This document shows, in pieces, positions 13,328 through 48,822 of a stretch of 64,000 bases of DNA (the first letter of the stretch is position 1; every line of letters begins with the position of its first letter). A model generated the notes under the pieces. That model did no database searches, was not told where the DNA came from, and saw nothing but the letters and a program-made list of their open reading frames with translations. Origin of the DNA: a virus (taxonomy: Duplodnaviria; Caudoviricetes); the IMG/VR virus record IMGVR_UViG_3300017766_003100, positions 32,001-96,000 of that record; one strand, 5' to 3'. The position numbers were made by a program, and so were the translations under genes.

Positions 13328-13328
13328 A

Positions 13329-14945: not shown

Positions 14946-14972
14946 TTAATTTATATTTTTATAAAAATTAAT

Positions 14973-14980
14973 CAAATATA
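14973..14980 (-). promoter_or_regulatory. Bacteroidota-type -7 promoter element (TAnnTTTG)
   Basis: TATATTTG on the minus strand 27 nt upstream of phoH; no clear -33 TTTG. Confidence 0.4.
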
Positions 14981-14999
14981 AAAAAAATCAAGAGTTACT

Positions 15000-16467: not shown

Positions 16468-16481
16468 TTTATCAAAATTAA

Positions 16482-17132: not shown

Positions 17133-17138
17133 ATTTTT

Positions 17139-17768: not shown

Positions 17769-17783
17769 ATTTTTTATTTTTTT

Positions 17784-18437: not shown

Positions 18438-18441
18438 AAAA

Positions 18442-19074: not shown

Positions 19075-19107
19075 ATTTTATTTTTTATACAAGTCTTGAA
19101 TGTTCAT

Positions 19108-19767: not shown

Positions 19768-19769
19768 TT

Positions 19770-20336: not shown

Positions 20337-20337
20337 A

Positions 20338-21849
20338 TTATTGTGTAAATAAAATTTTATCTTTTAATTTCATTAAATTTTTCTTAACAAATGGCGTTAA
20401 AGTTTGATTAAAGTCATATTCAATCACTTTCATATTACCCTCAACATATCTGGTTTTACTTTCGTAATGATAGGCGGTATGTGTTCCTACGTTATAATTT
20501 TCAAAACCTATAAGTAGTAATTTTAAATTTAATTCAACATCTTCAAAACAATCAATATATTCCTCATTAAACATACCAATTTGTCTAAATGTATTTGTAT
20601 TAATCATCATTAATCCCGCAGTATTTCCAATACACTTTGTAATATCTTTATTAAAATTATAATATGACCATCTATTACGATTAACAATACTAAGTCCCAT
20701 ATTTGATAATTTAAGTCCAACTAAAATTCCATCGTGCTGAATAGTATTGTCATCATAATGTAGTCTGCAACCAACAGTCCCTACTTTAGATTTAATATTA
20801 TAAACATTTAACATTCCACTAATAACATCAGAAGTAAGTTTAATATCATTATTACAGAATAAAATATACTGATGTGTTTTATCCAAATGATTTTTAACAA
20901 CATCATTATTTATCTTTGCAAAATTATAATAATCATATTTGATTAATTTTATATTATCCAAACTATTAACCAATTCTTCAATTACATTAATTTCTTCCTC
21001 AGTTGAACCAGTGTCAGCAATAAAGATATCAAATAATTTAGGATTACAATATTCATAAAAAGAATCAATACATTGAATTAACAATTCTATATTACCCTTT
21101 GTTGGTATAATTACCCCAACTTTACCTTTCAATTTAACATCTTTAATTTTGACTTCAGGAGTATAAATTGATGTTGGTTTTAAATCCAAAGGTAATACAT
21201 CTTTATATTTTCCAACAAACTTAATTTTACTATCAAAGAATTCCTGATTAGGTTGTCCCACAGATTCGTGAGTTATTTCAAATGAAGATGTGACCCCAAT
21301 TTTAATTCCATCCAAATAGTTTGGTACACAAAATCCGTGGTCATAAAAATGAAACTTACCAATTGTTTCATCAAACTTATGTTTAATTTTTGTCTTATCA
21401 AAAGACATAAATAAACCATCAATTGTAACTACTGGAATTAAAAATGGTAATTTAGGGGAATAGTTGTTAATCCATTTCTTTTGTCCTTCAGGATGATGCC
21501 AAACTTGACCAACCATAGTTAAATTCATTCTCTCCCAATAAACTCCTGATTCAGGAAAATAACAAGAACCAGCTTTTCCAATTATACCGAATTTGGGGTA
21601 ATTGGAAAAATCTTCCATTAATTTAATACCCCAATTTTTTTCAAGTTTAATATCATTATGGCAACAAACAACAATATCATATATTGATTCCGTTATTCCA
21701 CTATTGTAAACTTCGGCCAAAGAATATTGATTATTGTTTTGATATTCCAATATCTGAACGTCATTAAGACCCACACTAGTTTGAAGGTGGGTCTTAAATT
21801 TTTCGTTATATTCTTTATCTTTATGTGTTGAATAAATTATTGTTATCAT
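20338..21849 (-). CDS. Two-domain glycosyltransferase (GT-A + GT2)
   Basis: N-domain YNSGI..S.YDIVVCCHND; C-domain GVIIPT, DTGS, ILFCNND, EDVELNLK. Confidence 0.8.
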   Translation of the reverse strand: MITIIYSTHKDKEYNEKFKTHLQTSVGLNDVQILEYQNNNQYSLAEVYNSGITESIYDIVVCCHNDIKLEKNWGIKLMEDFSNYPKFGIIGKAGSCYFPESGVYWERMNLTMVGQVWHHPEGQKKWINNYSPKLPFLIPVVTIDGLFMSFDKTKIKHKFDETIGKFHFYDHGFCVPNYLDGIKIGVTSSFEITHESVGQPNQEFFDSKIKFVGKYKDVLPLDLKPTSIYTPEVKIKDVKLKGKVGVIIPTKGNIELLIQCIDSFYEYCNPKLFDIFIADTGSTEEEINVIEELVNSLDNIKLIKYDYYNFAKINNDVVKNHLDKTHQYILFCNNDIKLTSDVISGMLNVYNIKSKVGTVGCRLHYDDNTIQHDGILVGLKLSNMGLSIVNRNRWSYYNFNKDITKCIGNTAGLMMINTNTFRQIGMFNEEYIDCFEDVELNLKLLLIGFENYNVGTHTAYHYESKTRYVEGNMKVIEYDFNQTLTPFVKKNLMKLKDKILFTQ

Positions 21850-22457
21850 ATTCCAGTTGAACCAAAACCTTTATCAGCTCTATCAGTTTTATTTATGTCT
21901 TTCTTCTTAACCAAATTAACCCACTTTCCATTAACCACAGAAGTTAATACAGCTTGGGCAATCTTCATTCCTTTATTCACCACAAATTCGTGATTATTAA
22001 CATTGAATAGAATAACTTTAACTTCACCAGTATAACTATTATCAACAGTACCTGGTGAGTTTAACACCATAAGACCTTGTTTTAATGCCAAACCACTTTT
22101 TGACCTAACTTGGATTTCATACCCATCCTTTATTTCAAAAGCCAAACCAGTGGAAACTAATGCTCTTCCAAATGGGGGTAGAAGAACTTCTTCAGTTGAA
22201 TATAAATCAAATCCTGAATCACCATCATAATTATAAAATGGTTCAACAGCATCAGGATTTAGTTTAACAAAACCAAGGTCTAATTTTGGACTATAATTCA
22301 ACATATCTTCTTCAAGTTGTTTTAAATCCAAACCAAATTCTTCATAAATCATATCATAATCAATATCCCCACCTTTTTCATTTTCTTCAATTAACTTTTC
22401 AAGTTTTGAAGCGTATTCACCAATGTTTTCTAGTTTACTTAAATCATTTATATTCAT
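21846..22457 (-). CDS. dut: dUTPase (trimeric type) with N-terminal extension
   Basis: SGFDL, VRSKSGLA, NSPGTVDNSYTGEVKVIL, KIAQAV, RADKGFGSTG. Confidence 0.95.
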   Translation of the reverse strand: MNINDLSKLENIGEYASKLEKLIEENEKGGDIDYDMIYEEFGLDLKQLEEDMLNYSPKLDLGFVKLNPDAVEPFYNYDGDSGFDLYSTEEVLLPPFGRALVSTGLAFEIKDGYEIQVRSKSGLALKQGLMVLNSPGTVDNSYTGEVKVILFNVNNHEFVVNKGMKIAQAVLTSVVNGKWVNLVKKKDINKTDRADKGFGSTGI

Positions 22458-23164
22458 TTCAAATCTTTTAATTTTTTAACAATATGAATAAGGACATCAA
22501 CATCCTTTTCACAATATTCACTTATACCTTTTAGGTTTTGTTTTTCCCAATATTCATTATGTACATTTTCTCCAACCACTTCTCCATTTTTTGGAGTTTC
22601 AATACCAATAGTTGAACACAACAAATCCAAAGAACCTATTGAGGTATAAGCACCATATTGCCAAATTTCTTTGGTGTCAATAGCTTTTATTTCCCAAGGT
22701 TTGGTATCATAACTTGGTAAGATTGATGGCGGCATTAATCCATTGATAATCATACGTTTTGCCAACATTGGTATATCAAAATTTTTAAGATTATGACCAC
22801 ACAACCAAAAATCTAATTTACCACATTTAATTAATAACTTTTGTACATCAGATAAAAGTTTATATTCATCATCATTACAAAAAGTTTGTTTTCTAATTTC
22901 TCCATTATCCAAAACAAATGCAAAACTAATACAAACTATTTTTGCAAATTCAGGAACTAATCCAGCGCGTTTTATAAAAACTTGATTCTTTTGGTCAATT
23001 TCAATATCAGAATCTTCTGGAAATCTTTTAAGAAACCAATCAAAATACTTATCAAATTGTTGTGCAACAATTGGATTTAAATTTGAACATACGTCATAGT
23101 TAGGACAACCACCAACAGTTTCAATGTCCATAAACAAAATCTTAGAAATTGGAATTTTTATCAT
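22454..23164 (-). CDS. PolB-type 3'-5' exonuclease (DEDD, stand-alone)
   Basis: LFMDIET, GHNLKNFDIP, YCEKDV. Confidence 0.85.
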   Translation of the reverse strand: MIKIPISKILFMDIETVGGCPNYDVCSNLNPIVAQQFDKYFDWFLKRFPEDSDIEIDQKNQVFIKRAGLVPEFAKIVCISFAFVLDNGEIRKQTFCNDDEYKLLSDVQKLLIKCGKLDFWLCGHNLKNFDIPMLAKRMIINGLMPPSILPSYDTKPWEIKAIDTKEIWQYGAYTSIGSLDLLCSTIGIETPKNGEVVGENVHNEYWEKQNLKGISEYCEKDVDVLIHIVKKLKDLK

Positions 23165-23168
23165 AGTT

Positions 23169-24383
23169 TTATTTTATAAGTGATTTGTACCATTCAGCTC
23201 TATCTTTTGTAATCTTTTTAAGACTATACTTGTCTTTAACTGTCTCGTATAATCTTTCACCCAAATCTACAACTAAATTTGGATTATACACAAGAGTTTT
23301 GATATTTTTTGCCCAATCAGCGTGATTTCTTTGTTCTTTAACCAAAAGTGCATTACCATCCGTAAATTTACCAAACTCTAATGAATGTTTCAAATCAATG
23401 GTGTAAGGTCCTACTTCCGATGCAATCAAAGCTCTTTTATAAAATCCCGCTTCAATAACTTTTAATTGAGATTTAACTCGATTAAAGATATGGTTTTTAA
23501 TTGGGGCTAAAGATATATCAAATTTGGAATAATTTGTAGCATAAGTATTAACAGGTTTAGTCCAAACTCTTCTGTATGGTAAACTACTTTCATCATTATA
23601 TTCAGCTTCTCTAAATTCAGATAAAAATTGTTTGTACTGAGGCGTTACAATGTTATAATTGTTAGTGAAGATTTCTTCATATCTCGCCCATACAGTTTCT
23701 TCAGGTTTAATAGCTCTTTGTTTTCTTTCACCAGTTTGAGGATTAATTTCAGTAATAGTTCCTCTTGTATCAAAACCACATAGAACGTACTGAATCTTAT
23801 TGTTTAGTTGACTATTTTTACCAACAAATCCCTCCAATAGTTTTAAGTCGTGAAAGTGGGAAGAACCTCCTAACCATCCTACTCTAATTCTATCAGATTC
23901 CTCAATAGGTTGTTTAAATTGTGGTTCATCAGGATTAATACCATTAGGGAATACAACGACATTTCTATTCAATTTTCTAATCTCATCAGCAAAAATACTA
24001 GTTGTAGTTGTAATATAACTTGCAACTTTAAGATTTGCCATAATTTTTTCATGGATTTTATCTTGAACAATTAATTGGTGAATTGGATGTTCTTTGCCTG
24101 GTAACCAATAATCATCCAAATCAACAACAACAATGATTCCTTGTGATTTTAGAAAATTTATTATGTTTGGGGTTTGTTCATAATTTGCTCCAATGTTTCT
24201 GTGGATGTGAACAATTTGATATTGTTTCCAATAATTCAAATTATTTATTTGTGGTTGATAATCTATATCCACATAGAAATCATCAGGATACATATTTTGT
24301 AACATAACGTGGGGGTCTACAGAACGAAATTTTCCTACACCAGTTGTGTCACTTGGGAGTACTAATACTTTTATTTTTGACAT
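23169..24383 (-). CDS. Glycosyltransferase, GT-B fold
   Basis: DLDDYW, RVGWLGGSSH, DISLAP...KSQLKVIEAG..ALIAS. Confidence 0.75.
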   Translation of the reverse strand: MSKIKVLVLPSDTTGVGKFRSVDPHVMLQNMYPDDFYVDIDYQPQINNLNYWKQYQIVHIHRNIGANYEQTPNIINFLKSQGIIVVVDLDDYWLPGKEHPIHQLIVQDKIHEKIMANLKVASYITTTTSIFADEIRKLNRNVVVFPNGINPDEPQFKQPIEESDRIRVGWLGGSSHFHDLKLLEGFVGKNSQLNNKIQYVLCGFDTRGTITEINPQTGERKQRAIKPEETVWARYEEIFTNNYNIVTPQYKQFLSEFREAEYNDESSLPYRRVWTKPVNTYATNYSKFDISLAPIKNHIFNRVKSQLKVIEAGFYKRALIASEVGPYTIDLKHSLEFGKFTDGNALLVKEQRNHADWAKNIKTLVYNPNLVVDLGERLYETVKDKYSLKKITKDRAEWYKSLIK

Positions 24384-27208: not shown

Positions 27209-29542
27209 ATGTCATATCAAAATATAAATCAATTTAATCGTAATAATCTATTTCCAACTTTGAGTTTGGATACTTACGATATGTCTTTAACAACTGATGA
27301 ATTGGGATTCAATCAGGAGGTAGTTTTTTCTCCGTATTTAATTGCTCAAACATTTGGTAATAGATTGCCTTTTTATTTTAATCTGAATAGTTCTGCAACA
27401 ACACAAAACCTAAATTTAACTTATAAAAATTACAATTTTAATAATATATTTGTATCTGAAAATTACTACAACCCAAAAGAAGAAATATTAAGTTGTGAAT
27501 TATCAGGAACATCTTGTGATATTGGGTTGACAGGTATTGACAATGGTTTGGTGACTGGTATGACTGGTGAAACAATTATTTTTACTGAAGGATTATTACC
27601 AAACAATTTAATGTTTAATCGTTATTACTATGATAGACGATTAAAATTACATCAAGTTACTGGATTTACTTCAAGTAATGTAATGTTTTCAGGATTTAAC
27701 AAAAATATTTTATATGAAGTTGTAAGTAAGAATGACCCTTATGTTGGTTATTATCACGAACTTTATGGTGGGTTCTATCAAGGATTTTATCGTTTGTTTG
27801 GATATGATTATAATATTTTTCCTGAAAGGATGAATAAGGGATGGTCAATTGAAATGATATTGAAACCAAGATTAATTAATGAATATTCTGGAACAACGGG
27901 TGAAACCACATTAAACGAAATATATCCAAATAATAAGAACTTTTTCTTTTATATTGGTACAAGAGCTGAAAATAAATTTTATCATCACGCTGATGGAAGT
28001 CCAATTTGCACAAGTGGTTATACGAGAGTAACATCAGGTTTAACTGGATTATCAACTTGTGCTTGTTGTGATTATAATGTTACAAATAGTAGATGTATCT
28101 ATGTTTACCCTCCACGTTCAGTTAATGGAGTTCACGACCCCCATGTGAATTATGGTTGTGATAAATGTGGTGGAAATTCTCATACTAAAATAACTTGTGG
28201 TTGTGGTTGTAATGATTTACCTTGTCAGACTTGTGGGTGGGAATGTCAAACACATACTTGTGGCACAATAATTCAAGTCACTCCAACACCTACACCAACA
28301 CCATCACCAACTCCATTTTGTGACCCATTTCCACCTCAAACAACTTGTACACCAACTTGTACTAATTGTGAAAATTGCACAGATTGTAACGATTGTACTT
28401 CAGGATTCACATCAATTGAAGATACTTGTGAAAAGAATCCATTATTGGATACGATGAGTAATTCTTTGGGTATTAGATTATGTGGTGACCCTAAAAATCC
28501 TGGTATTGGTATTAGATTTTTAAGATTTACTGGAGGATGTGAAGTTAGCGGTACTTGTACGACAGGATTAACATATGAGACAGGTTATACTATAACTGAT
28601 ATTTGTACACCACCAATCTATCCTGATTGTGAAAAAATTAATCCAGCTTGGTTAGAAGAAGAACATTGGTTTCAGGTTGATGTTGTTTGGGAAAGGTATA
28701 ACTTTTTGGATGAATGTGATTTATTTTGGAGAGGTGGTTTAGGTGATATTACTAAAAAACTTTATTTGGAAAGTTTGGCAAATAATACGGTATCATTAAT
28801 TGAACCTCCATATACAAGAGGAGAATCCGCATTACAAGTTGAATTAATTAACTTAAATGAAAAATGGTTAATTGATGGAAAAAATAGATTGGGCAGATTG
28901 AAAATTTATATCAATGGTAAAATATTTTATACAATTGAAAATTTTGAAGAGATAATCCCAAGGGCATTAAATACGGATAAGGAAAAACAAGTTGGTGTGC
29001 CATTTAATATTTCTTGGGGTGGTGGTACTCAAGGATTAAGAGAGAATTTAACGTTCTCATCAATGACACAACCATACGGTCCTTATATTCAAGACCCTGA
29101 ATGTTTTCCAATTAATGATTTAAGTGGTACAACTTTAAGTGGTTTAAACACAAATATATTAATCGAACAAAATTTTGCGGGTACATTTGAGGGGGCAATA
29201 TCTCAGTTTAGAATGTATGTTTCACCATTATCAGCACCTGAAGTGAAACATAATTTCTTATTATTAAAAAATCCATTTGGGATGTTTAATCCTGATTGTC
29301 CTGATTGTTCAACAATTGTTTGTGAGGTAAATGATTTAACGTACACAATTACAGAATTGTCACCAACACCAACGCCAACTAATACACCAACAACGACACC
29401 TAGACCAACACCATCAGTGACACCAACGAATACGGTGACACCAACAATGACTGTTACACCATCACATACACCAAGACCAACAAGAACACCTACAAAAACA
29501 CCAACACCAACTCCAACACCGAGTAAAAGTATTTGTGTCTAA
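27209..29542 (+). CDS. Virion protein with LamG/concanavalin-like fold, Cys-rich insert and Pro/Thr tail (777 aa)
   Basis: WSIEMILKP...LKIYING...FEGAISQFRMY..PLSAPEV (LamG-like); Cys-rich insert; C-terminal PT repeats. Confidence 0.6.
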   Translation: MSYQNINQFNRNNLFPTLSLDTYDMSLTTDELGFNQEVVFSPYLIAQTFGNRLPFYFNLNSSATTQNLNLTYKNYNFNNIFVSENYYNPKEEILSCELSGTSCDIGLTGIDNGLVTGMTGETIIFTEGLLPNNLMFNRYYYDRRLKLHQVTGFTSSNVMFSGFNKNILYEVVSKNDPYVGYYHELYGGFYQGFYRLFGYDYNIFPERMNKGWSIEMILKPRLINEYSGTTGETTLNEIYPNNKNFFFYIGTRAENKFYHHADGSPICTSGYTRVTSGLTGLSTCACCDYNVTNSRCIYVYPPRSVNGVHDPHVNYGCDKCGGNSHTKITCGCGCNDLPCQTCGWECQTHTCGTIIQVTPTPTPTPSPTPFCDPFPPQTTCTPTCTNCENCTDCNDCTSGFTSIEDTCEKNPLLDTMSNSLGIRLCGDPKNPGIGIRFLRFTGGCEVSGTCTTGLTYETGYTITDICTPPIYPDCEKINPAWLEEEHWFQVDVVWERYNFLDECDLFWRGGLGDITKKLYLESLANNTVSLIEPPYTRGESALQVELINLNEKWLIDGKNRLGRLKIYINGKIFYTIENFEEIIPRALNTDKEKQVGVPFNISWGGGTQGLRENLTFSSMTQPYGPYIQDPECFPINDLSGTTLSGLNTNILIEQNFAGTFEGAISQFRMYVSPLSAPEVKHNFLLLKNPFGMFNPDCPDCSTIVCEVNDLTYTITELSPTPTPTNTPTTTPRPTPSVTPTNTVTPTMTVTPSHTPRPTRTPTKTPTPTPTPSKSICV
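29359..29523 (+). repeat. Pro/Thr (PT/PTxT) peptide repeat
   Basis: [55 protein letters not shown]. Confidence 0.9.
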
Positions 29543-29587
29543 TTTTCTTAATCTTAGTATTTATCTAAAATGTGATTTTTAAGAAAT

Positions 29588-30514
29588 ATGACATCAATTA
29601 TAATTCAAAGTGTTAATTATTCAGGGGAAAGTGCAAGTATTGTTTTTACTCCACATAATTCGAATATTCCAATTAATTTGGGTGTTCAAGTATTACCTTA
29701 TTTGTTCGACCCAAGTTTATTAACACCACCATATGATGTTTATGGTACATACACAATTTTGACATTAAATTCAAGTTGTCCATTAATTCTTAATGTACCA
29801 GCACCAACTTCTACACCAACACCAACAATTACACCGACAAGAACTTCAACACCAACTCCAACTCCAACGGTGACACCAACACCGACTTTTGACCCGTGTA
29901 AAGTTCCATCACCTACACCAACACCAACACAGACTGCGACACCTACTCCGACTATATCGATAACACCAACAGTAACACCATCGTTAAATCCTTGTGTTAC
30001 TCCATCTAAATCACCTGGTGTAACTAAAACACCTACACCTACACCAACTGTGACACCAACTAATACGGTAACACCAACTGTTACTCCAACGGTAACTCCG
30101 ACAGTGACACCGACAAAAACAAGTACACCAACACCTACTAAAACAAGTACACCAACTCCAACACCATCACCAGGTGCACCTGAAACACCAAAGATTTATT
30201 GGGGTAAATTTAGTGGAGGTACTATTACTAGTGGTGATACAATTTTATTGTCAAGTGGTTATACTTCTAATCCAACAAATACTTATAGAAGTATTCCAAG
30301 TGGTTTCGCTTATGGTTATATTCTAATACCAACTGGTTTAACACAACCATCAGAATTTAGAAATAGTAATGTAGGTTGTTCAGGTAGTAATATACCATTT
30401 AACAATATAGGTACGATAATCATAGTAGACGCTAACGGATTTAGCATAACATATAATGTTTACAGAACTTTCTTCCAAATCACTGATGGTTTCGATGTAT
30501 GGTTATGTAGTTAA
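29588..30514 (+). CDS. Mucin-like Pro/Thr-rich virion protein (308 aa)
   Basis: About 125-aa PT region between two small beta domains; GTATTTAT at 29557-29564. Confidence 0.7.
29800..30182 (+). repeat. Long Pro/Thr peptide repeat including tandem PTVT units
   Basis: ...[48 protein letters not shown]. Confidence 0.95.
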
Positions 30515-30527
30515 AATAAAATAATTA

Positions 30528-33500
30528 ATGGGTTCTTTTAGTTTATCAGGTGGTGTTGAAGTTTTTGGTTTTATTTCTCCCAGTAATACCACAGACCAAT
30601 ATCCAGTTATTGACCCCTTATATGGTATTGATGGTTTAAGAAACGTTAATACTTTAAGTGACTTAAATTTAATTCCAACACTTAGAAGAAGGGCTGGTAT
30701 GATTGTGGGTGTAAGTGGAGGAACAACATACTATAAACTTAATTCCCCACCTTGGTCTTTAACATTATCAGATTGGACTATATTCAATTCTGGTAGTGGA
30801 GGTGATTTTCTTCCATTGTCAGGTGGGACTGTTAGTGGTGGAACTATATTCACAAATGGATTAACAGCAAACACATTTTCAGCAACCACATATTTGGGGT
30901 TACCCTCTGACATTTATGTGTCAGGATTCACCTATTTGGATAATATATTGACAATACAAAGAAGTTCGGGAAATCCGAATTTGTTTGTTACAATTAATGA
31001 TTTCACTGGATTAACAATTAATGGTAATTTAAATGTCACTGGAAATACAATTGTTGATGGTATTAGTGCCAATACTATTTCCGCTTCAACATATCTTAAT
31101 TTACCTATTGATGTATTCGTAACTGGTGGAACATACGATAATGTAACTGGTATTGCAACATTTACAAATAACACTGGTGGAACATTTAATATCAGTGGTT
31201 TATTCACAGGGTCAACTGATGTATTTGTTACAGGTGGAACTTATAGTGATAATACATTTACATTCACAAATAACACTGGTGGAACTTTTAATGTTTCATT
31301 TAATTCTGTATCAGGTTTAACTATAAATGGCGATTTAAATGTAACTGGAAATACGATTGTTGATGGTATTACGGCAAATACAATATCAGCAACAACATAT
31401 CAAAATTTACCAATTGACCCAGATACATATATAACCGCATTTACATACAATAATAATACATTAACCATTGATGATAATTCAGGGAATACATTTAACACAA
31501 CAATTAATGATTTCACTGGATTAACAATTAATGGAGATTTAAGTGTTACTGGTTCTTCCGTAGTTAATAGTTTAACCGCAAATACAATATCAGGTAGTTC
31601 ATACACAATTACAAATTCAACTCAAAATAATTCATTAGATGAATTTTTAGTTATAGATGGTAATGGAGATTTTTTTACTAGAAATTTCAATAGCATTAAT
31701 AAACTTGATAATACAATTACCGTTGCTTTAAGTGGTGGTAGTGCGGATTTTACATCCATTGAAAGTGCTGTAAATAGTATAACTGGTTCGTCTTCAGCTA
31801 ATACTTATGTTGTTCAAGTTGCTGGTGGAGTTTATTATGAAAATCCATTCACAATACCAACGTGGGTTTCAGTTGTTGGTGAAAGTTCAGTATCAACGAT
31901 AATTGAAGCAATTGACCCTTCTCAAACATTAATTAAATTAAGTGACCAATCGGCATTATTTGATTGTCAAGTACAAGGATGTACGGGAATTGGAGTTTCA
32001 GCAATATTATATTCATCATCAACTACACCACAATCAAGTGCAATCTCTTATGTTGAGAATGTAAGATTTGGTTCTAATTATACTCACGCCAAAGTTGTCG
32101 CTTCAAGTGGTGCTAACATCATTATGCAATGTTCCAATGTTAAGTATGGTGGTTACCCATTCACTATTGGTTTTTATGCAACAAATGATGGTAGTGGTAT
32201 TGGTAGAATGCAATTAAGAAATGTAACATCAACTAATGGTGGAATTGTTACAACAACAGGATTGATTTTTGCTAAGGCTGATGCTCAAAGTTGTGGATTT
32301 ATTGTTAATGGTTGTTTATTAACTAAAGCTGTAGGTGCTGCCGCGGGTACTGGATTTTATGTTGAAAATGGTGGGTTCTTAAGATTAACCGCTGTTAATT
32401 TTCAAAGATGGTCAGTAGGTATTGACGCACCTCAAATTGGTTCTGCTCCAAGTATAGATGCAATTGCTCTTAATTTTGAAAACAATACAATTGATGTTAA
32501 TATTGTACATTCAGGTACAACTGGTAAAATACAAGGTACGGATAATTTTTTAAAGACATTAATAAACATTAATGCCCCAATTTATGAAGTTAACCAAGAC
32601 CCAAGACAAATAACTGTAGCTAAAAAAGGTGGTGATTTTTCATCAATTAAATCAGCCGTTGATTATTTAATTGCGTCAGGTAACACATCATTATCAAATA
32701 GATTTGTTATTACTGTAGGACCTGGTTTTTTTTATGAAAATGAAATTGATTTAACTCAAACACCTTATGTAAGTATTGTTGGTAGTAATATACAAACAAC
32801 ACAAATTCTTCCAAATTCAAGTACACAACATATCTTGAAAATAGGTCAAAATAATGAAGTTTCATTTTTATCATTCTCTGGTGCAGGTTTAGGATATGCC
32901 GCAATTTATTGTTATGATATTGGGGATTTTGGTCAAGCACATAAGTGTTCATTCACAGATTGTGATACCAATGTATGGGTTGAATCGGTAACACAAGATA
33001 CCAATTTTTATGGGGAGTATTTAGATTTCAATGGTTCTTATACTTACGGAACGAAAGTAATTGCAACAAATGGTTTTGTTGCTCTTGCAAATATGGAAAA
33101 CTATTATAATTTCCCAATAGGAACTGGTATAACATATTGTAATTATGCTACAGGTAGTGGAGCAACATTAAGTATATTCGTTGGTGATAATCAATCAAAT
33201 GGTGTATCAGGTTCAACAGCTTATTACATACAAGATGGTGCTGAATTAAACGCTTCGACTATAACCATAGATGGATTTACATATGGTATTAGAAATCCAA
33301 ATATTGGTGATGGGGTAAGATTTGATGTTGACAACGCAAGTGTTATTAATGGTGAATGGGATTTATATATTGAGAGGTCAACAACTTTTGGTACATTTGG
33401 GGGTAGCTCCAATCACCAAAAAATATTCACAAATAGTTCAGACGTTTATTGGGTGTTTTTGGATATTGATGATGGTGAATTAGATATAACTAGAAAAGCA

Positions 33501-36065
33501 TCAGTAACATTTACCGATGGTTCACATACTGACTTCACTACATTGATATTTGAAGGTGGTTCAATGGGATTAATTAGTGGTGGTAGTTTGAGTGTGGTTA
33601 GTGGAACGACAATCCAAGCCGATGGTGGTTTTGGATATTTAGAAAAATCAGATAATAGTGGAATTGTTAGAAGAATTGATTGGATAAATAATCTTATAAC
33701 ATTATCTGCAAATACTGATGAATATATTTTTATAAATGAAAATAGTAATTTAAGTAGTTCTGGAACAAGACCTAATTCAGCATACAACATATTGTTGGGT
33801 AGGGTTGTAACAAATTCAACTGATGTAGAGTTCATTGATTTAAGTCCATTTAATGCTGAACATACTTCAAATAGATATGGTGACCTTTTATCAAATGCGT
33901 TAGGACCTATTTATGCTACAGGGTCAATTGTAACTGAAGGTGTTACACCATTCACACTTGATGTTACAAGTGGGGAATATTACTTTGCAACAAATCAGTT
34001 TTTACCATCAGGTGGAACTAATTTACAATTTGTACAATATTATAGAAACGGAACTGGTAGTACTTGGGTAACATCAGCAACAACTTTTGTAAATAATACA
34101 AGTTATGATAATAATGGAACACTTACAGGATTAACTACGAGTTATTTTACTAAACACACCTTGTATCTTGTTGGTGAGGGGTCATTAGAAAATTATTTTT
34201 TAGTATTAGGTCAAAATGAATATTCAACTTTACTTGCAGCTGAAAATGGTTTGTTACCCACACCACCATCATTCTTCTCAGATTCAGTAACTCAAATTGC
34301 AAACATTTATGTTCAACAAGGTGCAAGTGGTGTTACAATTATTGAAGATATTAGACCAACTATTGCATTTAGAGCTGGTGGTGTAAACGCGTCTTCAGTT
34401 CACGGAAACTTATTGGGTTTAAGTGCTGATGACCACACACAATACTTATTAGTTTCAGGAGCAAGAGCAATGTCAGGTAATCTTGATATGGGATTAAATG
34501 ACATAACTAATGTTGGTCTTGTTGATGGTGTGACAGTAAGCTCTCATGCAACAAGACATCAATTTGGTGGAGCTGACCCTGTGGGAACAACAACACCATC
34601 ACCAAATGCAATACCTTACGCTGATGTAAGTGGAACTTTGGATGATTGGATTTCAACTGGAACAACATCAACTTTAGGTAAAGTTAAATTAAGTGTTTCC
34701 CCAATATCAGCGTCAGACCCAATTGTTGTTGGTGATAATGATTTAAGAGTTACTCAAGCAATAAGTGGTGGTAGTTTCAATAATTCTACTGATACACTAA
34801 CATTAAATAGAAATGATGGTACTACATTACAAATAACTGGTTTTACTGATGTGTTTGTAACGGGTGGTACATTTAATAGTGGTAGTTTAACATTTACAAA
34901 TAATACTGGTGGTACATTTAGTGTATCAGGTATATCATCATTTGATACATTTGTCACAGGATTTACTTATTCAGATAATACATTTACAATATCTCAGAAT
35001 AGTGGTACATCGTTAACTGCAACAATTAATTCAGTAACAGGATTAACTGCGTCAACAATATCTGCAGCAACATTTAATGGGAATATTGTAGCACTAAACG
35101 GAACATCAGTTACAAATCCAACATATAGAACATCATTAGCGGGTTCTAATTTAAGTCCAAGGGCGACATTTGGTAGTGAAACAACTGCAGCTAACACACA
35201 TAGATATATTTTTGACCCAGTTAATCAAAATGGTTTAGTATTTTCTATAGCAAATAATGGTAGTGTTTATATTGCAAGAGGTGGAATTGTTGCTGGTGGT
35301 TCAGGTTCTATATCACAAGAAATTGGTGATTTAAGATTTTTTACTTTAAATTCACCTAATGCTACTTTGTTCTCAGAAAGAATGAGACTAGACCATTTTG
35401 GTAATCTTGGTATTGGTACAACATCTCCATCTGAAAAATTAGATGTTGTTGGGAAAACAAAGACATCAACATTACAAGTTACATCTGGTGCAACAAATGG
35501 GTATACTTTAATTTCAGATTCAAGTGGTAATGCTATTTGGACACCATTACCAACTTTTACAGGTGGTACTGTAACTGGTAGTACAAATTTTACAAACGGA
35601 TTAACCGCTAATACAATATCTGCAACAACATATCAAAACTTACCAATAGATGTATTCGTAACTGGAGGTACTTATTCAAATGGGGATGTTTTATTCACCA
35701 ATAATACTGGTGGAACATTTAATGTGAGTGGATTTTTTACAGGTTATACGAATGTAGTTAATTCAGTTACTGCTGGTGTAGGTTTATCAGGTGACACAAC
35801 AACTGGAGATATAACTTTAATTAATACCTCACCTGACCAAATTGTTACAATCAGTGGAGGAACTGGTATTACAACGGGAGGAACATATCCTGATTTTACA
35901 ATAACGAATTCATTACCTGACCAAGTTGTTACATTAAGTGGGGGAACTAATATTTCTATTACAGGAACTTATCCTAATTTTAATATATCATTTACAGGTT
36001 CAACAACATCAACCTTTGATTATGGTAAAACTTATGCAATATCAAATAGTTTTCAATTAATTTAA
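30528..36065 (+). CDS. Long tail fibre/appendage protein with repeat shafts and beta-helix-like domains (1845 aa)
   Basis: Repeated TANTISATTY.NLP.DVFVTGGTY and FTNNTGGTFNVSG units; two TVA..GG.DF.SI.SAV beta-helix entry motifs; GNLGIGTTSPSEKLDVVG. Confidence 0.75.
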   Translation: MGSFSLSGGVEVFGFISPSNTTDQYPVIDPLYGIDGLRNVNTLSDLNLIPTLRRRAGMIVGVSGGTTYYKLNSPPWSLTLSDWTIFNSGSGGDFLPLSGGTVSGGTIFTNGLTANTFSATTYLGLPSDIYVSGFTYLDNILTIQRSSGNPNLFVTINDFTGLTINGNLNVTGNTIVDGISANTISASTYLNLPIDVFVTGGTYDNVTGIATFTNNTGGTFNISGLFTGSTDVFVTGGTYSDNTFTFTNNTGGTFNVSFNSVSGLTINGDLNVTGNTIVDGITANTISATTYQNLPIDPDTYITAFTYNNNTLTIDDNSGNTFNTTINDFTGLTINGDLSVTGSSVVNSLTANTISGSSYTITNSTQNNSLDEFLVIDGNGDFFTRNFNSINKLDNTITVALSGGSADFTSIESAVNSITGSSSANTYVVQVAGGVYYENPFTIPTWVSVVGESSVSTIIEAIDPSQTLIKLSDQSALFDCQVQGCTGIGVSAILYSSSTTPQSSAISYVENVRFGSNYTHAKVVASSGANIIMQCSNVKYGGYPFTIGFYATNDGSGIGRMQLRNVTSTNGGIVTTTGLIFAKADAQSCGFIVNGCLLTKAVGAAAGTGFYVENGGFLRLTAVNFQRWSVGIDAPQIGSAPSIDAIALNFENNTIDVNIVHSGTTGKIQGTDNFLKTLININAPIYEVNQDPRQITVAKKGGDFSSIKSAVDYLIASGNTSLSNRFVITVGPGFFYENEIDLTQTPYVSIVGSNIQTTQILPNSSTQHILKIGQNNEVSFLSFSGAGLGYAAIYCYDIGDFGQAHKCSFTDCDTNVWVESVTQDTNFYGEYLDFNGSYTYGTKVIATNGFVALANMENYYNFPIGTGITYCNYATGSGATLSIFVGDNQSNGVSGSTAYYIQDGAELNASTITIDGFTYGIRNPNIGDGVRFDVDNASVINGEWDLYIERSTTFGTFGGSSNHQKIFTNSSDVYWVFLDIDDGELDITRKASVTFTDGSHTDFTTLIFEGGSMGLISGGSLSVVSGTTIQADGGFGYLEKSDNSGIVRRIDWINNLITLSANTDEYIFINENSNLSSSGTRPNSAYNILLGRVVTNSTDVEFIDLSPFNAEHTSNRYGDLLSNALGPIYATGSIVTEGVTPFTLDVTSGEYYFATNQFLPSGGTNLQFVQYYRNGTGSTWVTSATTFVNNTSYDNNGTLTGLTTSYFTKHTLYLVGEGSLENYFLVLGQNEYSTLLAAENGLLPTPPSFFSDSVTQIANIYVQQGASGVTIIEDIRPTIAFRAGGVNASSVHGNLLGLSADDHTQYLLVSGARAMSGNLDMGLNDITNVGLVDGVTVSSHATRHQFGGADPVGTTTPSPNAIPYADVSGTLDDWISTGTTSTLGKVKLSVSPISASDPIVVGDNDLRVTQAISGGSFNNSTDTLTLNRNDGTTLQITGFTDVFVTGGTFNSGSLTFTNNTGGTFSVSGISSFDTFVTGFTYSDNTFTISQNSGTSLTATINSVTGLTASTISAATFNGNIVALNGTSVTNPTYRTSLAGSNLSPRATFGSETTAANTHRYIFDPVNQNGLVFSIANNGSVYIARGGIVAGGSGSISQEIGDLRFFTLNSPNATLFSERMRLDHFGNLGIGTTSPSEKLDVVGKTKTSTLQVTSGATNGYTLISDSSGNAIWTPLPTFTGGTVTGSTNFTNGLTANTISATTYQNLPIDVFVTGGTYSNGDVLFTNNTGGTFNVSGFFTGYTNVVNSVTAGVGLSGDTTTGDITLINTSPDQIVTISGGTGITTGGTYPDFTITNSLPDQVVTLSGGTNISITGTYPNFNISFTGSTTSTFDYGKTYAISNSFQLI
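30990..31534 (+). repeat. 35-bp exact direct repeat within the fibre gene (30990-31024 and 31500-31534)
   Basis: ACAATTAATGATTTCACTGGATTAACAATTAATGG twice, 510 bp apart, in frame. Confidence 0.9.
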
Positions 36066-36084
36066 AATAAAAAAATAAAATAAT

Positions 36085-36504
36085 ATGCCAGCTAACACAT
36101 CACCAATTTTTACACTAACACCTGATATACAATGGACAGATGCTATGACAGTAGCAAATACCACAAAAGATTTAACATCAGGTACGATTTATTTAGTATT
36201 TACCGCAGGAGCTAATGGAGGTTATGTACAAAGAATAAGATTTAGAACCTTAGGAACAAACTCGGCAGCAACTGTCGCAAGGATTTGGATTAATAATGGA
36301 AGTACTACATCAACCTCATCTAATAATGTTTTATGGGATGAGATAACATTACCGACAACAACTAACTCAGAGGTTGCAGCACAAGCCAACTATGAACTAC
36401 CATTGAATTTTGCTTTACCTCCAAGTTACGCCATGTATGTTACTTTAGGTACCGCCCCAAATGCGGCAGGTTGGGATGCAACAATAATTGGTGGAGAATA
36501 TTAA
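36085..36504 (+). CDS. Tail-fibre-associated protein (139 aa)
   Basis: Beta-rich small protein directly after the fibre gene. Confidence 0.55.
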   Translation: MPANTSPIFTLTPDIQWTDAMTVANTTKDLTSGTIYLVFTAGANGGYVQRIRFRTLGTNSAATVARIWINNGSTTSTSSNNVLWDEITLPTTTNSEVAAQANYELPLNFALPPSYAMYVTLGTAPNAAGWDATIIGGEY

Positions 36505-36518
36505 AATATTAATTATAT

Positions 36519-36692
36519 ATGTTTACTTATGCACTTTGTGAATTTCAGTATGGTTATAATGGTCAATTTTATCAAAGAAATGATGAACTTGGTAATACAG
36601 TTTTTTTTAGTTTAGTGGGAGATATATTAGATTTAATTCCTCCTTATGGGTATTTTATTGTTGAAACTGATGTTACACCACCTTGGGTTTAA
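36519..36692 (+). CDS. 57-aa hypothetical protein (absent from ORF track)
   Basis: Manual translation MFTYALCEFQYGYNGQFYQRNDELGNTVFFSLVGDILDLIPPYGYFIVETDVTPPWV; fills the gap between co-oriented genes. Confidence 0.7.
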   Translation: MFTYALCEFQYGYNGQFYQRNDELGNTVFFSLVGDILDLIPPYGYFIVETDVTPPWV

Positions 36693-36705
36693 AAATTAAA
36701 AATAT

Positions 36706-37602
36706 ATGATTGATTATAACAACTTAGCCAATATAGATAAAAATATTTCCGTGTTCACCGCAGTAGGGGCATCGGCTTGGCAAACTTGGCAAAAACCGAG
36801 AGGTTGTAAGTTTGTATATATGTTTGTTATTGGTGGAGGTGCTGGAGGTGGTGGAGGTAGGTCAACTACAGGTAACAGAGGAGGTGGTGGTGGAGGTGGT
36901 TCTTCAGGAATAAATAAAGGTATGTTTATGGCAAATACTATACCTGATACATTGTATATAAATGTTGGGGTAGGAGGTGCAGGTGGTTCTGCGGGTGGTA
37001 CTGGAGTATCAGGTACAATTTCTTATGTATCTGTACAACCAAATACTACCGCAGTAAATGTTTTATTATATTCTAACTCATCAGTACCAACAGGAGGTGC
37101 ATCAACTGGAGGTGCGGGTAATACTGGAGGTGCAATCACAACAACTAATCAAATAATTAGTTTTGCGGGAGTTACTCAATATAGTGCAGGGTTAAATGGT
37201 GGAAATGGTGGTGCGAATACTGGAGGTGTGGGTACATCAATAGGTATGACAACAATTGTAACAGGAGGGGCTGGTGGTGGAGGTTCAAGTACTGCAAACG
37301 TAAATGGTGCTGGAGGTTCAGTTACACTTGGTACGGGTTTACCTACAATGTCAGGTGGGGCTGCAGGTGGTACAAATAATGGTATGGATGGATTTAATGG
37401 TTTTTTACCAACACAAAATAATATAATAAGTGACGCCTTTGTTTTTGGAGGAGGTGCTGGAGGTGGAGCTAATGGTACTGGAATAGGAGGAAATGGTGGA
37501 AACGGAGGATATGGATGTGGTGGTGGAGGCGGAGGAGCTGGAACAACTGCAGGTAGAGGTGGAAAAGGTGGTGATGGTTTGGTAATAATAATTTCATATT
37601 AA
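36706..37602 (+). CDS. Glycine-rich tail-fibre-like protein, copy 1 (298 aa)
   Basis: WQKPRGCK.V.MFVIGGGAGGGGG ... GYGCGGGGG...GGKGGDGLVIIISY. Confidence 0.8.
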   Translation: MIDYNNLANIDKNISVFTAVGASAWQTWQKPRGCKFVYMFVIGGGAGGGGGRSTTGNRGGGGGGGSSGINKGMFMANTIPDTLYINVGVGGAGGSAGGTGVSGTISYVSVQPNTTAVNVLLYSNSSVPTGGASTGGAGNTGGAITTTNQIISFAGVTQYSAGLNGGNGGANTGGVGTSIGMTTIVTGGAGGGGSSTANVNGAGGSVTLGTGLPTMSGGAAGGTNNGMDGFNGFLPTQNNIISDAFVFGGGAGGGANGTGIGGNGGNGGYGCGGGGGGAGTTAGRGGKGGDGLVIIISY

Positions 37603-46230: not shown

Positions 46231-46813
46231 AATTTTTAATGGGATTACATTTTTGATATTTTTTATCATTAAATTTTTCTCCTTTCAATTGTGTCACCAT
46301 AATAATGTCATATAATCTTTTACCTGAAAAATTTTTTTGTATTTTAATTAGATTCGTATATTCAAGGTCATTATTAAATGTTATTAACTTTAAACAAATT
46401 ACCCTCTCCGACCAATTAAAATTTTGTATGTAATTAGTTATTTTACCCATACTTGAAAAAAGTAAATCAATTCCTTCAGTTGTTGTTGGGTCAACAATAT
46501 TTGGGTTATTTTCGTATTCAGGTTCTTTTTTTCTATCTAATCTTTGTAACCAATGGTCTGAAGGTTCAATAGTAAACCCCATTTTACTATTGGTATCATA
46601 ATAATATTCATCACCATTATTTTGATTTATTTGATTATAATGAGATTCAATATAATCTAACACATCATTCTCTTTGTCCACATCAATTTTAACTGTGGCA
46701 ATACCTTCGGTGAGGATTAGATATTTTTTTAATTCATAAAAACTAATTTGTTCAACTATTGTTTTTTGAGTAAAAAATTCCTCAATTAATATTTTTCTTA
46801 TCAAATTTCTCAT
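46229..46813 (-). CDS. Hypothetical protein with MRNLIRKILIEE leader; possible BECR-fold RNase-like domain
   Basis: SDHWLQRLDR motif and terminal IIMVT strand resemble H-x3-R-x3-R toxin RNases (weak). Confidence 0.5.
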   Translation of the reverse strand: MRNLIRKILIEEFFTQKTIVEQISFYELKKYLILTEGIATVKIDVDKENDVLDYIESHYNQINQNNGDEYYYDTNSKMGFTIEPSDHWLQRLDRKKEPEYENNPNIVDPTTTEGIDLLFSSMGKITNYIQNFNWSERVICLKLITFNNDLEYTNLIKIQKNFSGKRLYDIIMVTQLKGEKFNDKKYQKCNPIKN

Positions 46814-46818
46814 ATGAA

Positions 46819-46847
46819 TATAAATACTAATTAAATGAGTATTTATA
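46819..46847. promoter_or_regulatory. Back-to-back divergent RTATTTAT motifs
   Basis: GTATTTATA on minus at 46819-46827 and on plus at 46839-46847. Confidence 0.65.
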
Positions 46848-46859
46848 TATAAAAACTGG

Positions 46860-48785
46860 ATGGAATTTTTTATAAAGAAGAACGCAACGTTACCTCTTCT
46901 TAAATTACAAGTGGTTAAGAATGGTAGATTGGACTACAACAACTTTATGAGTTTGATAGAACAATCCGCTTTATTTTTTTCTATGGTTGATACAGAAACT
47001 GGCGTTGAAAAGATTGTTTCAAGACCTGCAGGGTTTGTTGAGAAGACGAATGTTGACCCAAATACTGAAAAGGAATATTATCTGTATTATCAATTCCAAA
47101 ATAGAGATACAAATAGAGTTGGTAGATATGAAGGCCAATTTATGTTAAGAAATTCTGATGGTGTTTTAATATTACCCATTAGAGAAAAATTATATATAAA
47201 TGTTCAAGAATCTTATATTGCTGATGATTTGGAATATGATTCTTGTTACATATCTGAATTTCCTTGTTGTGTTAACGGACCTACAACTGCAATTACAATA
47301 AATTTAAATATAGTAAGTGTTGTTACGATTAGTTCAGTAAAGGTTGATTATATTGTAACATCTTCTGATATATTAACAGACACACTAACATTAAATTTTA
47401 CAAATACTTTAGGACAATTAGTTGGAACTGGTCTAACAATTTCAACAGGTATTACAATAAATGCGGGGTCAAATATTGGATTTGGTGAGGTTATATTACC
47501 TGATGATTATTATAATTTGGATGGAACTTCAAAATTTAGTAATATTTCGGTTGTTTATCCAATAGCTTACAATTTTGTGGAATCATTTAATACAATATTT
47601 CCTCCACAGCCAACACCCACACCATCACCAGTACAACAAATAATTGACGCAATTTTAACTGATGAAACTGATGTATATATTGAGGTTGGTAGTGATGAGT
47701 ATTTAAGTTATGTTGACCCTAATTTAATATATAATGTTAATGTTTACGTGACTAGTGGTTCAATTGTTACTTACTTTACAGTTACTAGTAACATTCCAAT
47801 TAATCAAAATGTTTCATTATTAGTTAATACAAAATTATATTTAATTGGTGGGGGAAGTATTGATATTGGTTCAACGGTAATAATTTCATCGAATCAAACT
47901 ACAGGTCAAACAATTACAACAAATCCATCTCTTAACTATTATTCACTTGATAGGAGTGGTGAAATATTTGTAACATCACCTGATATTGATTTTCCATTCA
48001 CCATTCTAGCTGAACCACTTCAGTTTGAACAGGAACCAAGTCCAACTCCTACGCCTACTATAACACCAACACCTACACTAACACCTACACAGACTCCGAC
48101 ACCAACACCAAGTCCAGTACTTAACCCATTTATATCTGTTTGGAGAACAACAAAACCAAGTGCAGTAATTTCATTACCATATAATCCAAGTGGTAATTAT
48201 AGTGGTACTATTGATTGGGGTGATGGGACAATAACCCCAAATGATTTTGCAAACAAAAGTCATACATATGTTGACGCTGGTGATTATATTGTAACTATTA
48301 ATGGAATTATTGATGGTTTTAGTTTCCAATTATTTAGTTCAGGTGGAGTAGGTAACTTAATTGAAATTACACGTTGGGGTTGTTTAGAAATTAGGGATTT
48401 AGGTGGGGTTTTTCAAGGTTGTATTAATTTAGTTTTGACTGGTGTTACGGATACCCTAAATTTGGCGGGTGTAACAACACTACAAAATATGTTTAATAAT
48501 TGTATTAGTATTACAACTATTAATAATCTTGATTCTTGGGAAGTTAGTGGTGTTACTAATATGAGTTCTATGTTTTATGGGGCAACATCATTCAATCAAG
48601 ATATATCAAGTTGGGATGTCAATAATGTTACTAATATGGGTAATATGTTTCAAAACGCAACCACATTCAATCAAGATTTAAGTGGTTGGTGTGTAACAAA
48701 TATACCAAGTTTACCAACTAATTTTGACTCAGGTGCTACATCTTGGGTATTACCAAAACCAGTTTGGGGAACTTGTCCCCCATAA
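46860..48785 (+). CDS. Baseplate-anchored appendage protein: BppU-like N-terminus, PT linkers, PKD-like and BspA/DUF285-like repeats
   Basis: N-term FFIKKN.TLP.L...Y.FQ..DT..VG.YEGQF; IDWGDG...HTY..AGDY.VTI; repeats WEVSGVTNMSSMF / WDVNNVTNMGNMF. Confidence 0.7.
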   Translation: MEFFIKKNATLPLLKLQVVKNGRLDYNNFMSLIEQSALFFSMVDTETGVEKIVSRPAGFVEKTNVDPNTEKEYYLYYQFQNRDTNRVGRYEGQFMLRNSDGVLILPIREKLYINVQESYIADDLEYDSCYISEFPCCVNGPTTAITINLNIVSVVTISSVKVDYIVTSSDILTDTLTLNFTNTLGQLVGTGLTISTGITINAGSNIGFGEVILPDDYYNLDGTSKFSNISVVYPIAYNFVESFNTIFPPQPTPTPSPVQQIIDAILTDETDVYIEVGSDEYLSYVDPNLIYNVNVYVTSGSIVTYFTVTSNIPINQNVSLLVNTKLYLIGGGSIDIGSTVIISSNQTTGQTITTNPSLNYYSLDRSGEIFVTSPDIDFPFTILAEPLQFEQEPSPTPTPTITPTPTLTPTQTPTPTPSPVLNPFISVWRTTKPSAVISLPYNPSGNYSGTIDWGDGTITPNDFANKSHTYVDAGDYIVTINGIIDGFSFQLFSSGGVGNLIEITRWGCLEIRDLGGVFQGCINLVLTGVTDTLNLAGVTTLQNMFNNCISITTINNLDSWEVSGVTNMSSMFYGATSFNQDISSWDVNNVTNMGNMFQNATTFNQDLSGWCVTNIPSLPTNFDSGATSWVLPKPVWGTCPP

Positions 48786-48822
48786 TTTAAATAAATTAGA
48801 ATATTTATATATAAAAAACAAA

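Follow-up and report, generated by a model that had tools for sequence, protein, structure and literature searches.

The window analysed here is a stretch of 64,000 nucleotides from a large freshwater phage (positions 32,001 to 96,000 of IMG/VR record IMGVR_UViG_3300017766_003100, Caudoviricetes) for which no near-identical cultured phage was found. It encodes four proteins with long tracts rich in Thr and Pro, which we call carriers. Between the third and the fourth carrier lies a cassette of four genes on the same strand, consisting of a soluble glycosyltransferase of family 60 (GT60), two genes in a variable slot and a tandem GT-A glycosyltransferase. We write (T-x)n for a tract in which every second residue is Thr or Ser. 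The carriers and the cassette are laid out as follows, with protein lengths in amino acids (aa) and positions counted within the window.

27209..29542, + strand: 777-aa protein rich in Cys (35 Cys); one (T-x) tract is internal and another, of 64 residues, is C-terminal; tracts at residues 355-373 and 713-776 (window 28271-28327 and 29345-29536, + strand)
29588..30514, + strand: 308-aa protein; two (T-x)n blocks, about 125 residues in sum, lie between a small N-terminal domain and a C-terminal one; tracts at residues 69-132 and 142-201 (window 29792-29983 and 30011-30190, + strand), a TPTV run included
39416..39949, + strand: 177-aa Cys-rich protein (11 Cys), directly upstream of GT60; tracts at residues 69-96 and 158-177 (window 39620-39703 and 39887-39946, + strand)
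40009..41259, + strand: soluble GT60-family glycosyltransferase, 416 aa, PF11397, between the third and fourth carrier
41262..42685, + strand: variable slot, two genes of 227 aa and 250 aa
42685..44358, + strand: tandem GT-A glycosyltransferase, 557 aa, with an HtrL/YibB-like N-terminal half (PF09612, E 1.7e-16)
46860..48785, + strand: 641-aa fibre-like protein with a possibly BppU_N-like N-terminus, middle domains, two tracts and a C-terminal DUF285/PARCEL repeat domain; tracts at residues 245-259 and 391-423 (window 47592-47636 and 48030-48128, + strand)

A six-frame scan of all 64 kb found nine Pro/Thr tracts of 15-64 residues each, about 300 residues altogether, every one of them in the coding frame of a carrier on the + strand and none outside the four carrier open reading frames (ORFs). 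The original prediction, made from the letters of the window alone, had named the same four ORFs, and translation confirms them, with the tracts where it had placed them. The tracts have a mucin-like composition, being long low-complexity stretches of Thr/Ser and Pro with P, T and S jointly accounting for some two thirds to four fifths of each sequence. Without the four carriers, the window proteome contains 3.4% Pro and 7.0% Thr, and only about 7e-7 exact (PT)4 runs would be expected by chance in the 20,139 residues of the window proteome. The tracts are far beyond chance.

Within the window the tracts are strictly periodic: every second position is Thr or Ser (100 T, 17 S), and 62% of the alternate positions are Pro, the rest being V, I, K, S, N or others. 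The longest unbroken run comprises 25 dipeptides (residues 146-195 of the 308-aa protein); shuffles of the tracts that keep their composition reached a maximum of 13, and none of 2000 matched the observed run. The same pattern extends to 81 related loci, where we found 188 (T-x)n tracts in 85 distinct ORFs. The acceptor register of these tracts is 91.6% T and 8.4% S (4251 residues), and the other register is Pro in only 48% of positions, followed by N (11%), Q (10%), V and L. Since the Thr/Ser register is constant and Pro is replaceable, the conserved element is a hydroxyl amino acid at two-residue spacing and not proline. The motif had been predicted as PT or PTxT; the tracts are real, but what is invariant is the alternating Thr/Ser rather than Pro-Thr itself. 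At the level of DNA, the 6-base repeat units match only 62-85%, which argues that the repetition is kept by selection on the protein and not by recent slippage. Several of the tracts are C-terminal tails with nothing to link.

Homologues of the carriers in related contigs differ widely in tract length. Tracts span 0 to 376 residues in 14 distinct ORFs homologous to the 777-aa protein. In homologues of the 308-aa protein the tract is kept in 17 of 18 ORFs, with 44-274 residues, and homologues of the 177-aa protein carry from 0 to 1434 tract residues on the same scaffold. Two of the latter are giants: one (L069:3253-8628, + strand) has 1792 residues with 1434 in (T-x)n, including one run of 394 dipeptides, and the other (L054:3021-7598, + strand) has 1526 residues with 986 in (T-x)n. 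In both, x is often N or Q instead of P. None of the four window carriers has a signal peptide or a transmembrane segment. Searches of Pfam at E values up to 1 with their separate domains returned no usable match, and sequence searches of the Protein Data Bank (PDB) with the 777-aa protein and with a 1845-aa neighbour returned none. The Cys-rich carriers (27209-29542 and 39416-39949) contrast with the 1.4% Cys of the window proteome, despite having no signal peptide.

The 641-aa carrier offers a lead as to where such proteins might sit. In a structural model, its N-terminal ~135 residues resemble the BppU_N baseplate-anchor fold, with a TM-score of 0.81 when normalised to a 111-residue BppU cluster and of 0.39 when normalised to the query; we regard the predicted resemblance as a lead and not as proof. 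In most relatives the first ~140 residues (window 46860-47280) form a separate small ORF after the tandem GT-A gene (for example L041:14221-14634), and in the closest relative, L013, the homologue has only 147 aa. This suggests a modular fusion of an anchor domain to variable stalks and tips. The original prediction had placed the tracts on proteins of the virion region, which is borne out only in part, by the BppU_N-like fold as a lead and by Gly_rich_2, minor-tail-like neighbours. We infer that the carriers are fibre- or decoration-type proteins located in the virion. A 935-aa ORF (48724-51531) is listed with a TTG start that places its first 62 bases (48724-48785) inside the end of the gene for the 641-aa carrier; that ORF probably starts further downstream.

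The GT60 gene is assigned with high significance. Its product scores 246.4 bits against PF11397 (cut-off 21; E 7.6e-73) and matches the PHROG glycosyltransferase family phrog_24687 with E 3e-167; PF11397 is likewise the precomputed assignment of all 120 listed relatives. In T. cruzi and Dictyostelium, mucin-type chains begin with an alpha-linked N-acetylglucosamine (GlcNAc) that GT60 enzymes place on Thr; these enzymes depend on Mn2+ and are relatives of GT27 without the lectin domain found there (PMC3769586; PMC8724618). In 41 aligned homologues with 35-88% identity, D92-x-H94, E204, E205 and H229 are invariant; by analogy with GT27, D-x-H and the distal His would form the metal site. The AlphaFold2 model (mean confidence, pLDDT, 95.4) consists of a GT-A catalytic domain and an extra C-terminal beta domain (about residues 325-416). 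Its top Foldseek matches are human GalNAc-T4, T2, T1, T10 and T12, fly PGANT9 and TgGalNAc-T3 (E 2e-11 to 2e-9); with few exceptions, the 30 solved structures that match best are mucin-type polypeptide N-acetylgalactosamine (GalNAc) transferases. Sequence alone finds no match in the PDB for the enzyme, nor anything usable in Pfam at E up to 1 for its C-terminal domain. There is no transmembrane segment or signal peptide in the protein; hydropathy over 19 residues peaks at 0.88, and the first beta strand starts as early as residue 4. The phage enzyme is thus not a type II membrane protein of the secretory pathway, as the Golgi pp-alpha-GlcNAcT is.

Downstream of GT60, the 557-aa enzyme appears to join two GT-A domains in one chain. 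Its AlphaFold2 model (pLDDT 89) shows two Rossmann-like GT-A halves and a disordered loop at residues 280-288. The top Foldseek matches are LH3, Mimivirus R699, K4CP, LARGE1, COLGALT1 and PmHS2, all with probability 1.0 and with TM-scores of only 0.2-0.3 owing to a different domain orientation. In the second half, for which Pfam at E up to 1 yielded nothing usable, E383 and D385 are invariant and D384 nearly so (an 'EDD' motif). The tandem gene lies downstream of GT60 in 77 of 84 related loci, and signal peptides and membrane segments are absent from all the cassette enzymes. Between the two enzymes, the slot is variable. The two slot genes of the window have no homologue among the 84 loci and no Pfam family at E up to 1. 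The slots of relatives contain 0-9 same-strand genes from at least 30 families among these loci, including GT25 and a CmcI-type O-methyltransferase, with a carbamoyltransferase in the group of Xanthomonas phage XacN1. Slot content differs even between phages whose GT60 enzymes are 95-98% identical (in the L013-L092 sample).

GT60 is abundant in environmental phages and rare in deposited ones. Relatives number more than 7300 at 90% clustering, with 4695 clusters at 50%, and 164 contigs of IMG/VR, some of them complete genomes of about 300 kb, carry GT60 with 68-98% identity. Two distant GT60 representatives lie on contigs of only 5 kb, whose surroundings were uninformative. Of 50,697 deposited phage genomes only four have it: Xanthomonas XacN1 and Xoo-sp13 and Stenotrophomonas CM1 and RAS14. 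Their GT60 enzymes are 45-50% and their tandem GT-A enzymes 42% identical to those of the window, and the slot genes are not shared. In XacN1 the homologues are ORF334 (GT60, 49% identity) and ORF330 (tandem GT-A, 42% identity over the full length). The DNA polymerase of the window is unrelated to that of XacN1, and its type is found in none of the four; with the polymerase type different and both enzymes shared, the pair is common to otherwise distant jumbo phages.

XacN1 also has long (T-x)n tracts, in ORF325, ORF232, ORF236, ORF237 and ORF384. The first of these encodes 3313 residues and lies directly after the baseplate wedge genes, 9 kb from ORF334. Purified XacN1 virions contain at least two protein bands positive by periodic-acid-Schiff staining, not matched to particular proteins, and the authors credit the bands to the two glycosyltransferases of the phage, one of which is ORF334 (PMC5852040). 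Their paper draws no connection between the stain and the tracts, or between the enzyme and GT60 (PMC5852040). XacN1 thus resembles the window in its GT60 and tandem GT-A homologues and its long tracts, with virions that do stain for glycoprotein, and differs in its genome backbone and in a slot that holds a carbamoyltransferase.

The original prediction had proposed that proteins with these tracts and GT60-like genes should occur together across related phages, and they do. We searched genomic DNA for four consecutive CCN-ACN units, which encode (PT)4, with the reversed form as a control. All eight complete GT60-positive genomes contain the pattern (7 matches in XacN1, 5 in Xoo-sp13, 3 in RAS14 and 10-12 in each of five complete relatives of the window; none for the control), and all matches read as (T-x)n in long ORFs. 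By comparison, the six GT60-negative jumbo phages nearest the XacN1 group, chosen by DNA polymerase (Ralstonia RsoM2USA, Sinorhizobium Phosso, Xanthomonas XbC2, a Vibrio phage, Erwinia pEa_SNUABM_47 and E. coli 121Q), have no (PT)4 in 2.23 Mb and no PF11397 match. For 8/8 against 0/6 the Fisher probability is about 3e-4, a value that overstates independence, as the positives come from only two lineages. Tracts in relatives that lack the glycosyltransferases had been named in advance as the finding that would count against the prediction; tracts without GT60 do occur in unrelated phages and were not seen among relatives.

Linkage within genomes points the same way. A tract ORF lies within 10 kb of GT60 in 68 of 80 related contigs. 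Among ORFs of at least 90 residues, the share with tracts is 30% in the 2 kb upstream of GT60 and then falls to 18%, 12%, 11% and 8%; downstream it is 0-7%. On a 229-kb contig, G032, 25 of 26 (PT)4 matches flank GT60 on its two sides at no more than 3.3 kb; they fall in modular proteins rich in Cys, next to a lectin protein of the LamG type. Close to GT60, this contig repeats the architecture of small Cys-rich domains connected by tracts (L288:13218-14846). Approached from the tracts, GT60 is present in 11 of 43 arbitrarily sampled (PT)4-bearing viral contigs, a sample of the longest contigs in which most positives are probably from one clade; this is far above any plausible base rate.

GT60 homologues are also widespread among bacteria, with more than 566 matches. 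At 27 of the 80 best bacterial GT60 loci a (T-x)n tract lies no further than 10 kb away, and at ten of these it is upstream by at most 1 kb. One Gemmatimonadaceae operon (L309:9230-12972, + strand) begins with a PqqD-domain protein whose C-terminal tail is (T/S-x)n; GT60 comes directly after it and then a homologue of the tandem GT-A enzyme, so the two phage enzymes are also found as a conserved pair in a bin of a bacterial chromosome. In Ralstonia sp. 25C, a bona fide VgrG on chromosome 1 (L345:12270-15134, - strand; Phage_GPD E 2e-91, with OB and gp5 trimerisation domains) has about 60 Pro-Thr dipeptides at its end; its gene and that of GT60 converge, about 1 kb apart. VgrG orthologues were found at L315, L339, L340, L343, L344, L347, L349, L354, L360, L363, L369 and L370. 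In 13 Burkholderiales loci VgrG is about 5 kb from GT60, and in all 13 its end is a Pro-rich repeat whose units each contain a single Ser/Thr (PT, PSEEP, PPTE, EPTP and similar); the genera with both genes are Ralstonia, Paraburkholderia, Achromobacter, Trinickia and Paraherbaspirillum. VgrG is a phage-tail-like component assembled in the cytoplasm. These Burkholderiales loci are an independent repeat of the association between tracts and GT60, and from their sequences the VgrG tips are candidates for glycosylated spike tips of the type VI secretion system.

Taken with the family and fold of the enzyme, co-occurrence, linkage and the bacterial loci support the proposal, already made in the original prediction, that the tracts are acceptors for phage enzymes. 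We think it likely that some phage enzyme glycosylates the tracts, and fairly probable that the putative initiator on the (Thr-x)n tracts is the phage GT60. From these observations we infer a donor sugar, an acceptor residue, an order of enzymes, a location in the virion and a biological role. On phage proteins of the fibre or decoration type, the tracts would serve as mucin-like acceptor arrays. The soluble GT60 would act in the cytoplasm of the host late in infection and put the first sugar on tract Thr/Ser; by family analogy this would be GlcNAc, donated by uridine diphosphate GlcNAc (UDP-GlcNAc), with Mn2+ held by D-x-H. The tandem GT-A enzyme (42685-44358) would extend the chain, and the strain-variable slot genes, perhaps with an island of glycan genes at 11-24 kb, may tailor the glycan. 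The product would be a stiff brush of glycans, hydrophilic and resistant to proteases, which holds distal domains away from the particle and whose sugar structure varies between related phages. With up to 1434 residues, tracts are too long for a simple linker, and an acceptor array fits better than a spacer with their variable length, with their occurrence as C-terminal tails and with a constant Thr beside a replaceable Pro.

Several observations weigh against this interpretation. GT60 is missing from 7 of 8 complete (PT)4-bearing viral genomes in the arbitrary sample, so such tracts need not have GT60 in general. In the clade of the window GT60 is a core gene and no close relative is GT60-negative; all 10 apparently negative contigs, found by way of their DNA polymerase, end on the GT60 side, so there is no loss within the clade that could serve as a test. 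The comparison of eight with six genomes rests on two phage lineages. Each complete relative has a second tract cluster 70-100 kb from GT60, and at some GT60-positive loci the neighbouring carrier homologues have no tract. Only 27 of the 80 best bacterial loci have a tract within 10 kb, and the stained bands of XacN1 carry no protein assignment.

Two further features of the window form the context of the carriers and the cassette.

11473..24383, - strand: glycan island with GT2, GT1-like, Glyco_trans_1_2, GT4-like and double-GT2 proteins, two FkbM and two S-adenosylmethionine (SAM) methyltransferases
36706..39347, + strand: three tandem Gly_rich_2 paralogues, minor-tail-like (298, 294 and 283 aa), between carriers

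PhoH, dUTPase and a PolB-type exonuclease are scattered among the genes of the island (11.5-24.4 kb), at least six of which are glycosyltransferase-like, and the target of the island could be the same glycan as that of the cassette. The window as a whole has at least eight glycosyltransferase-like genes besides GT60. Densely coded at 28-30% G+C, the window rises to 35-40% over the Pro/Thr and Gly-rich genes. The Gly_rich_2 paralogues have GGx repeats and no tract and explain a local G+C rise to 38-40%. For most of the neighbouring genes PHROGs gave no function.

Convergent to the cassette lies a gene for a 507-aa protein (window 44385-45908, - strand) with an N-terminal signal peptide and a type A sorting domain of the type IX secretion system (T9SS), which scores 23.9 bits against TIGR04183 (cut-off 23). 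A phage protein built for type IX export points to a Bacteroidota host, and the host is probably Bacteroidota. Among the matches listed, the closest GT60 homologues in bacterial bins are on Saprospiraceae contigs; one of these, a 230-kb contig in a Saprospiraceae bin, is probably a binned phage.

The alternative that survives best is that the tracts are plain unglycosylated spacers and that the GT60 cassette and the other glycosyltransferases act on host surface polysaccharide, as a block to superinfection, or on phage DNA. Pro/Thr linkers are common in modular proteins, and the complete tract-bearing genomes without GT60 fit this view. The variable slot resembles the diversity of O-antigen loci, HtrL/YibB and GT25 are families associated with lipopolysaccharide, and Iyer et al. 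read the variable glycosyltransferase clusters of jumbo cyanophages as making diversified outer polysaccharides that pre-empt the attachment of other phages (PMC7824862). However, the fold of GT60 matches transferases directed at proteins and not at lipids or DNA, and the cassette enzymes have no membrane anchor. A spacer has no need of a conserved alternate Thr beside a Pro that is freely swapped for N, Q, V or L, nor does it readily account for tracts of such length. The tight linkage and co-occurrence of tracts and GT60, in phages and bacteria alike, also speak against it, and XacN1 virions do contain glycoproteins. We therefore consider unglycosylated spacers unlikely.

It is also conceivable, though we find it improbable, that the phage does glycosylate the tracts with another transferase as the initiator, for instance one from the 11-24 kb island, while GT60 serves a different acceptor. 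The further glycosyltransferase-like genes of the window would supply candidates, and the second tract cluster far from GT60 in complete relatives would be in keeping with this. Against it, tract density is highest right beside GT60, bacterial loci pair tracts with GT60 itself, and phages of the XacN1 type share only GT60 and the tandem GT-A enzyme with the window and yet carry tracts.

A hydroxyproline route would make Pro the acceptor instead of Thr, as in plant extensins or the Skp1 pathway. In the latter, known from Dictyostelium and Toxoplasma, a prolyl hydroxylase acts first, followed by the GT60 enzyme Gnt1 and then the two-domain PgtA. The Gnt1 branch of GT60 is cytoplasmic and soluble like the phage enzyme, and there too a two-domain transferase follows. 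But that pathway modifies one hydroxyproline on one protein, whereas in the phage hundreds of Thr are the likely targets, and in the tracts Pro occupies the variable register and Thr the conserved one. The prolyl hydroxylase family PF13640 (2-oxoglutarate- and Fe(II)-dependent) is absent from four complete relatives and a near-identical 103-kb contig, and none was found among the Pfam-scanned ORFs of the window; within the limits of that one family, the phage does not have the dedicated prolyl 4-hydroxylase that marks the Gnt1/Skp1 branch. We hold this route to be very improbable. Least plausible of all is modification by the general O-glycosylation system of a Bacteroidota host, for although the T9SS sorting domain and the Saprospiraceae matches point to such a host, this system acts outside the cytoplasm, the carriers have no signal peptide, and the D-(S/T)-(A/I/L/V/M/T) sequon is absent from the tracts and occurs 1-2 times per carrier outside them, which agrees with the original view that this route would not reach the proteins.

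Glycosylation of the tracts by phage enzymes, the reading we prefer, has counterparts in known systems, each of which it matches only in part. The O-glycosylation initiated by GT60 in protists (TcOGNT-2 of T. cruzi, Gnt2/modB of Dictyostelium) shares with the phage PF11397, Thr-rich acceptor arrays that contain Pro and the conserved metal motif, and there further transferases extend the first sugar (PMC3769586; PMC8724618). The phage enzyme differs in being soluble, in its extra C-terminal beta domain and in its proposed site of action, the bacterial cytoplasm instead of the Golgi, and its putative acceptors differ in being strictly alternating (T-x)n on fibre-like proteins. The GT27 GalNAc-transferases of animals and Toxoplasma are the best structural matches of the phage enzyme and share D-x-H with it; identity is only 10-17%, the phage model has no ricin-type lectin domain, and the two belong to different CAZy families. 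As acceptor, GT27 enzymes prefer a Thr with Pro next to it. In composition, the phage tracts resemble the Pro/Thr linkers of secreted cellulases, and some phage tracts do lie between folded domains. Cellulases, however, are secreted and glycosylated outside the cytoplasm, whereas the carriers lack a signal peptide, several of their tracts are C-terminal tails, the periodicity is strict and homologous tracts reach 1434 residues.

A precedent in phages comes from mycobacteriophages. Glycosyltransferases of Che8, Corndog and Myrna are reported to glycosylate the phages' own structural proteins in the host cytoplasm (Freeman et al. 2023, as cited in PMC12619734 and PMC12363180). There the carriers are the C-termini of capsid and tail-tube subunits and the enzymes belong to other families; of the two systems, it is the one proven by experiment. 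Here the carriers are modular, fibre-like and equipped with long periodic tracts, and GT60 is the putative lead enzyme.

A literature search found no paper on mucin-like Thr-rich tracts of phages together with a glycosyltransferase, and self-glycosylation of phage particle proteins is proven only in a few mycobacteriophages. Should this interpretation prove right, the enzyme family that initiates mucin-type chains in protists would be at work in a far larger group of phages, one very abundant in the environment, and its acceptors can be recognised from their sequence by a Thr at every second residue. This would change the annotation of tail-fibre and decoration proteins in uncultured phages and would explain the variable glycosyltransferase islands of jumbo phages. 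It would bear on host recognition, particle stability and evasion of grazing or immunity, and would extend to type VI spikes. Cultured GT60-positive phages exist in XacN1, Xoo-sp13, RAS14 and CM1. It is quite possible, though somewhat less likely than not, that freshwater jumbo phages in their thousands, the XacN1 group and diverse bacteria (on type VI VgrG) share a pathway of cytoplasmic mucin-type O-glycosylation, in which a soluble GT60 would recognise strictly alternating (Thr-x)n arrays, the tandem GT-A enzyme would lengthen the chain and the hypervariable slot would diversify the glycan. Were that so, contractile-injection machines would wear a strain-specific sugar brush, a bacterial and phage counterpart of eukaryotic mucins, and the GT60/GT27 lineage may have had a prokaryotic or viral reservoir.

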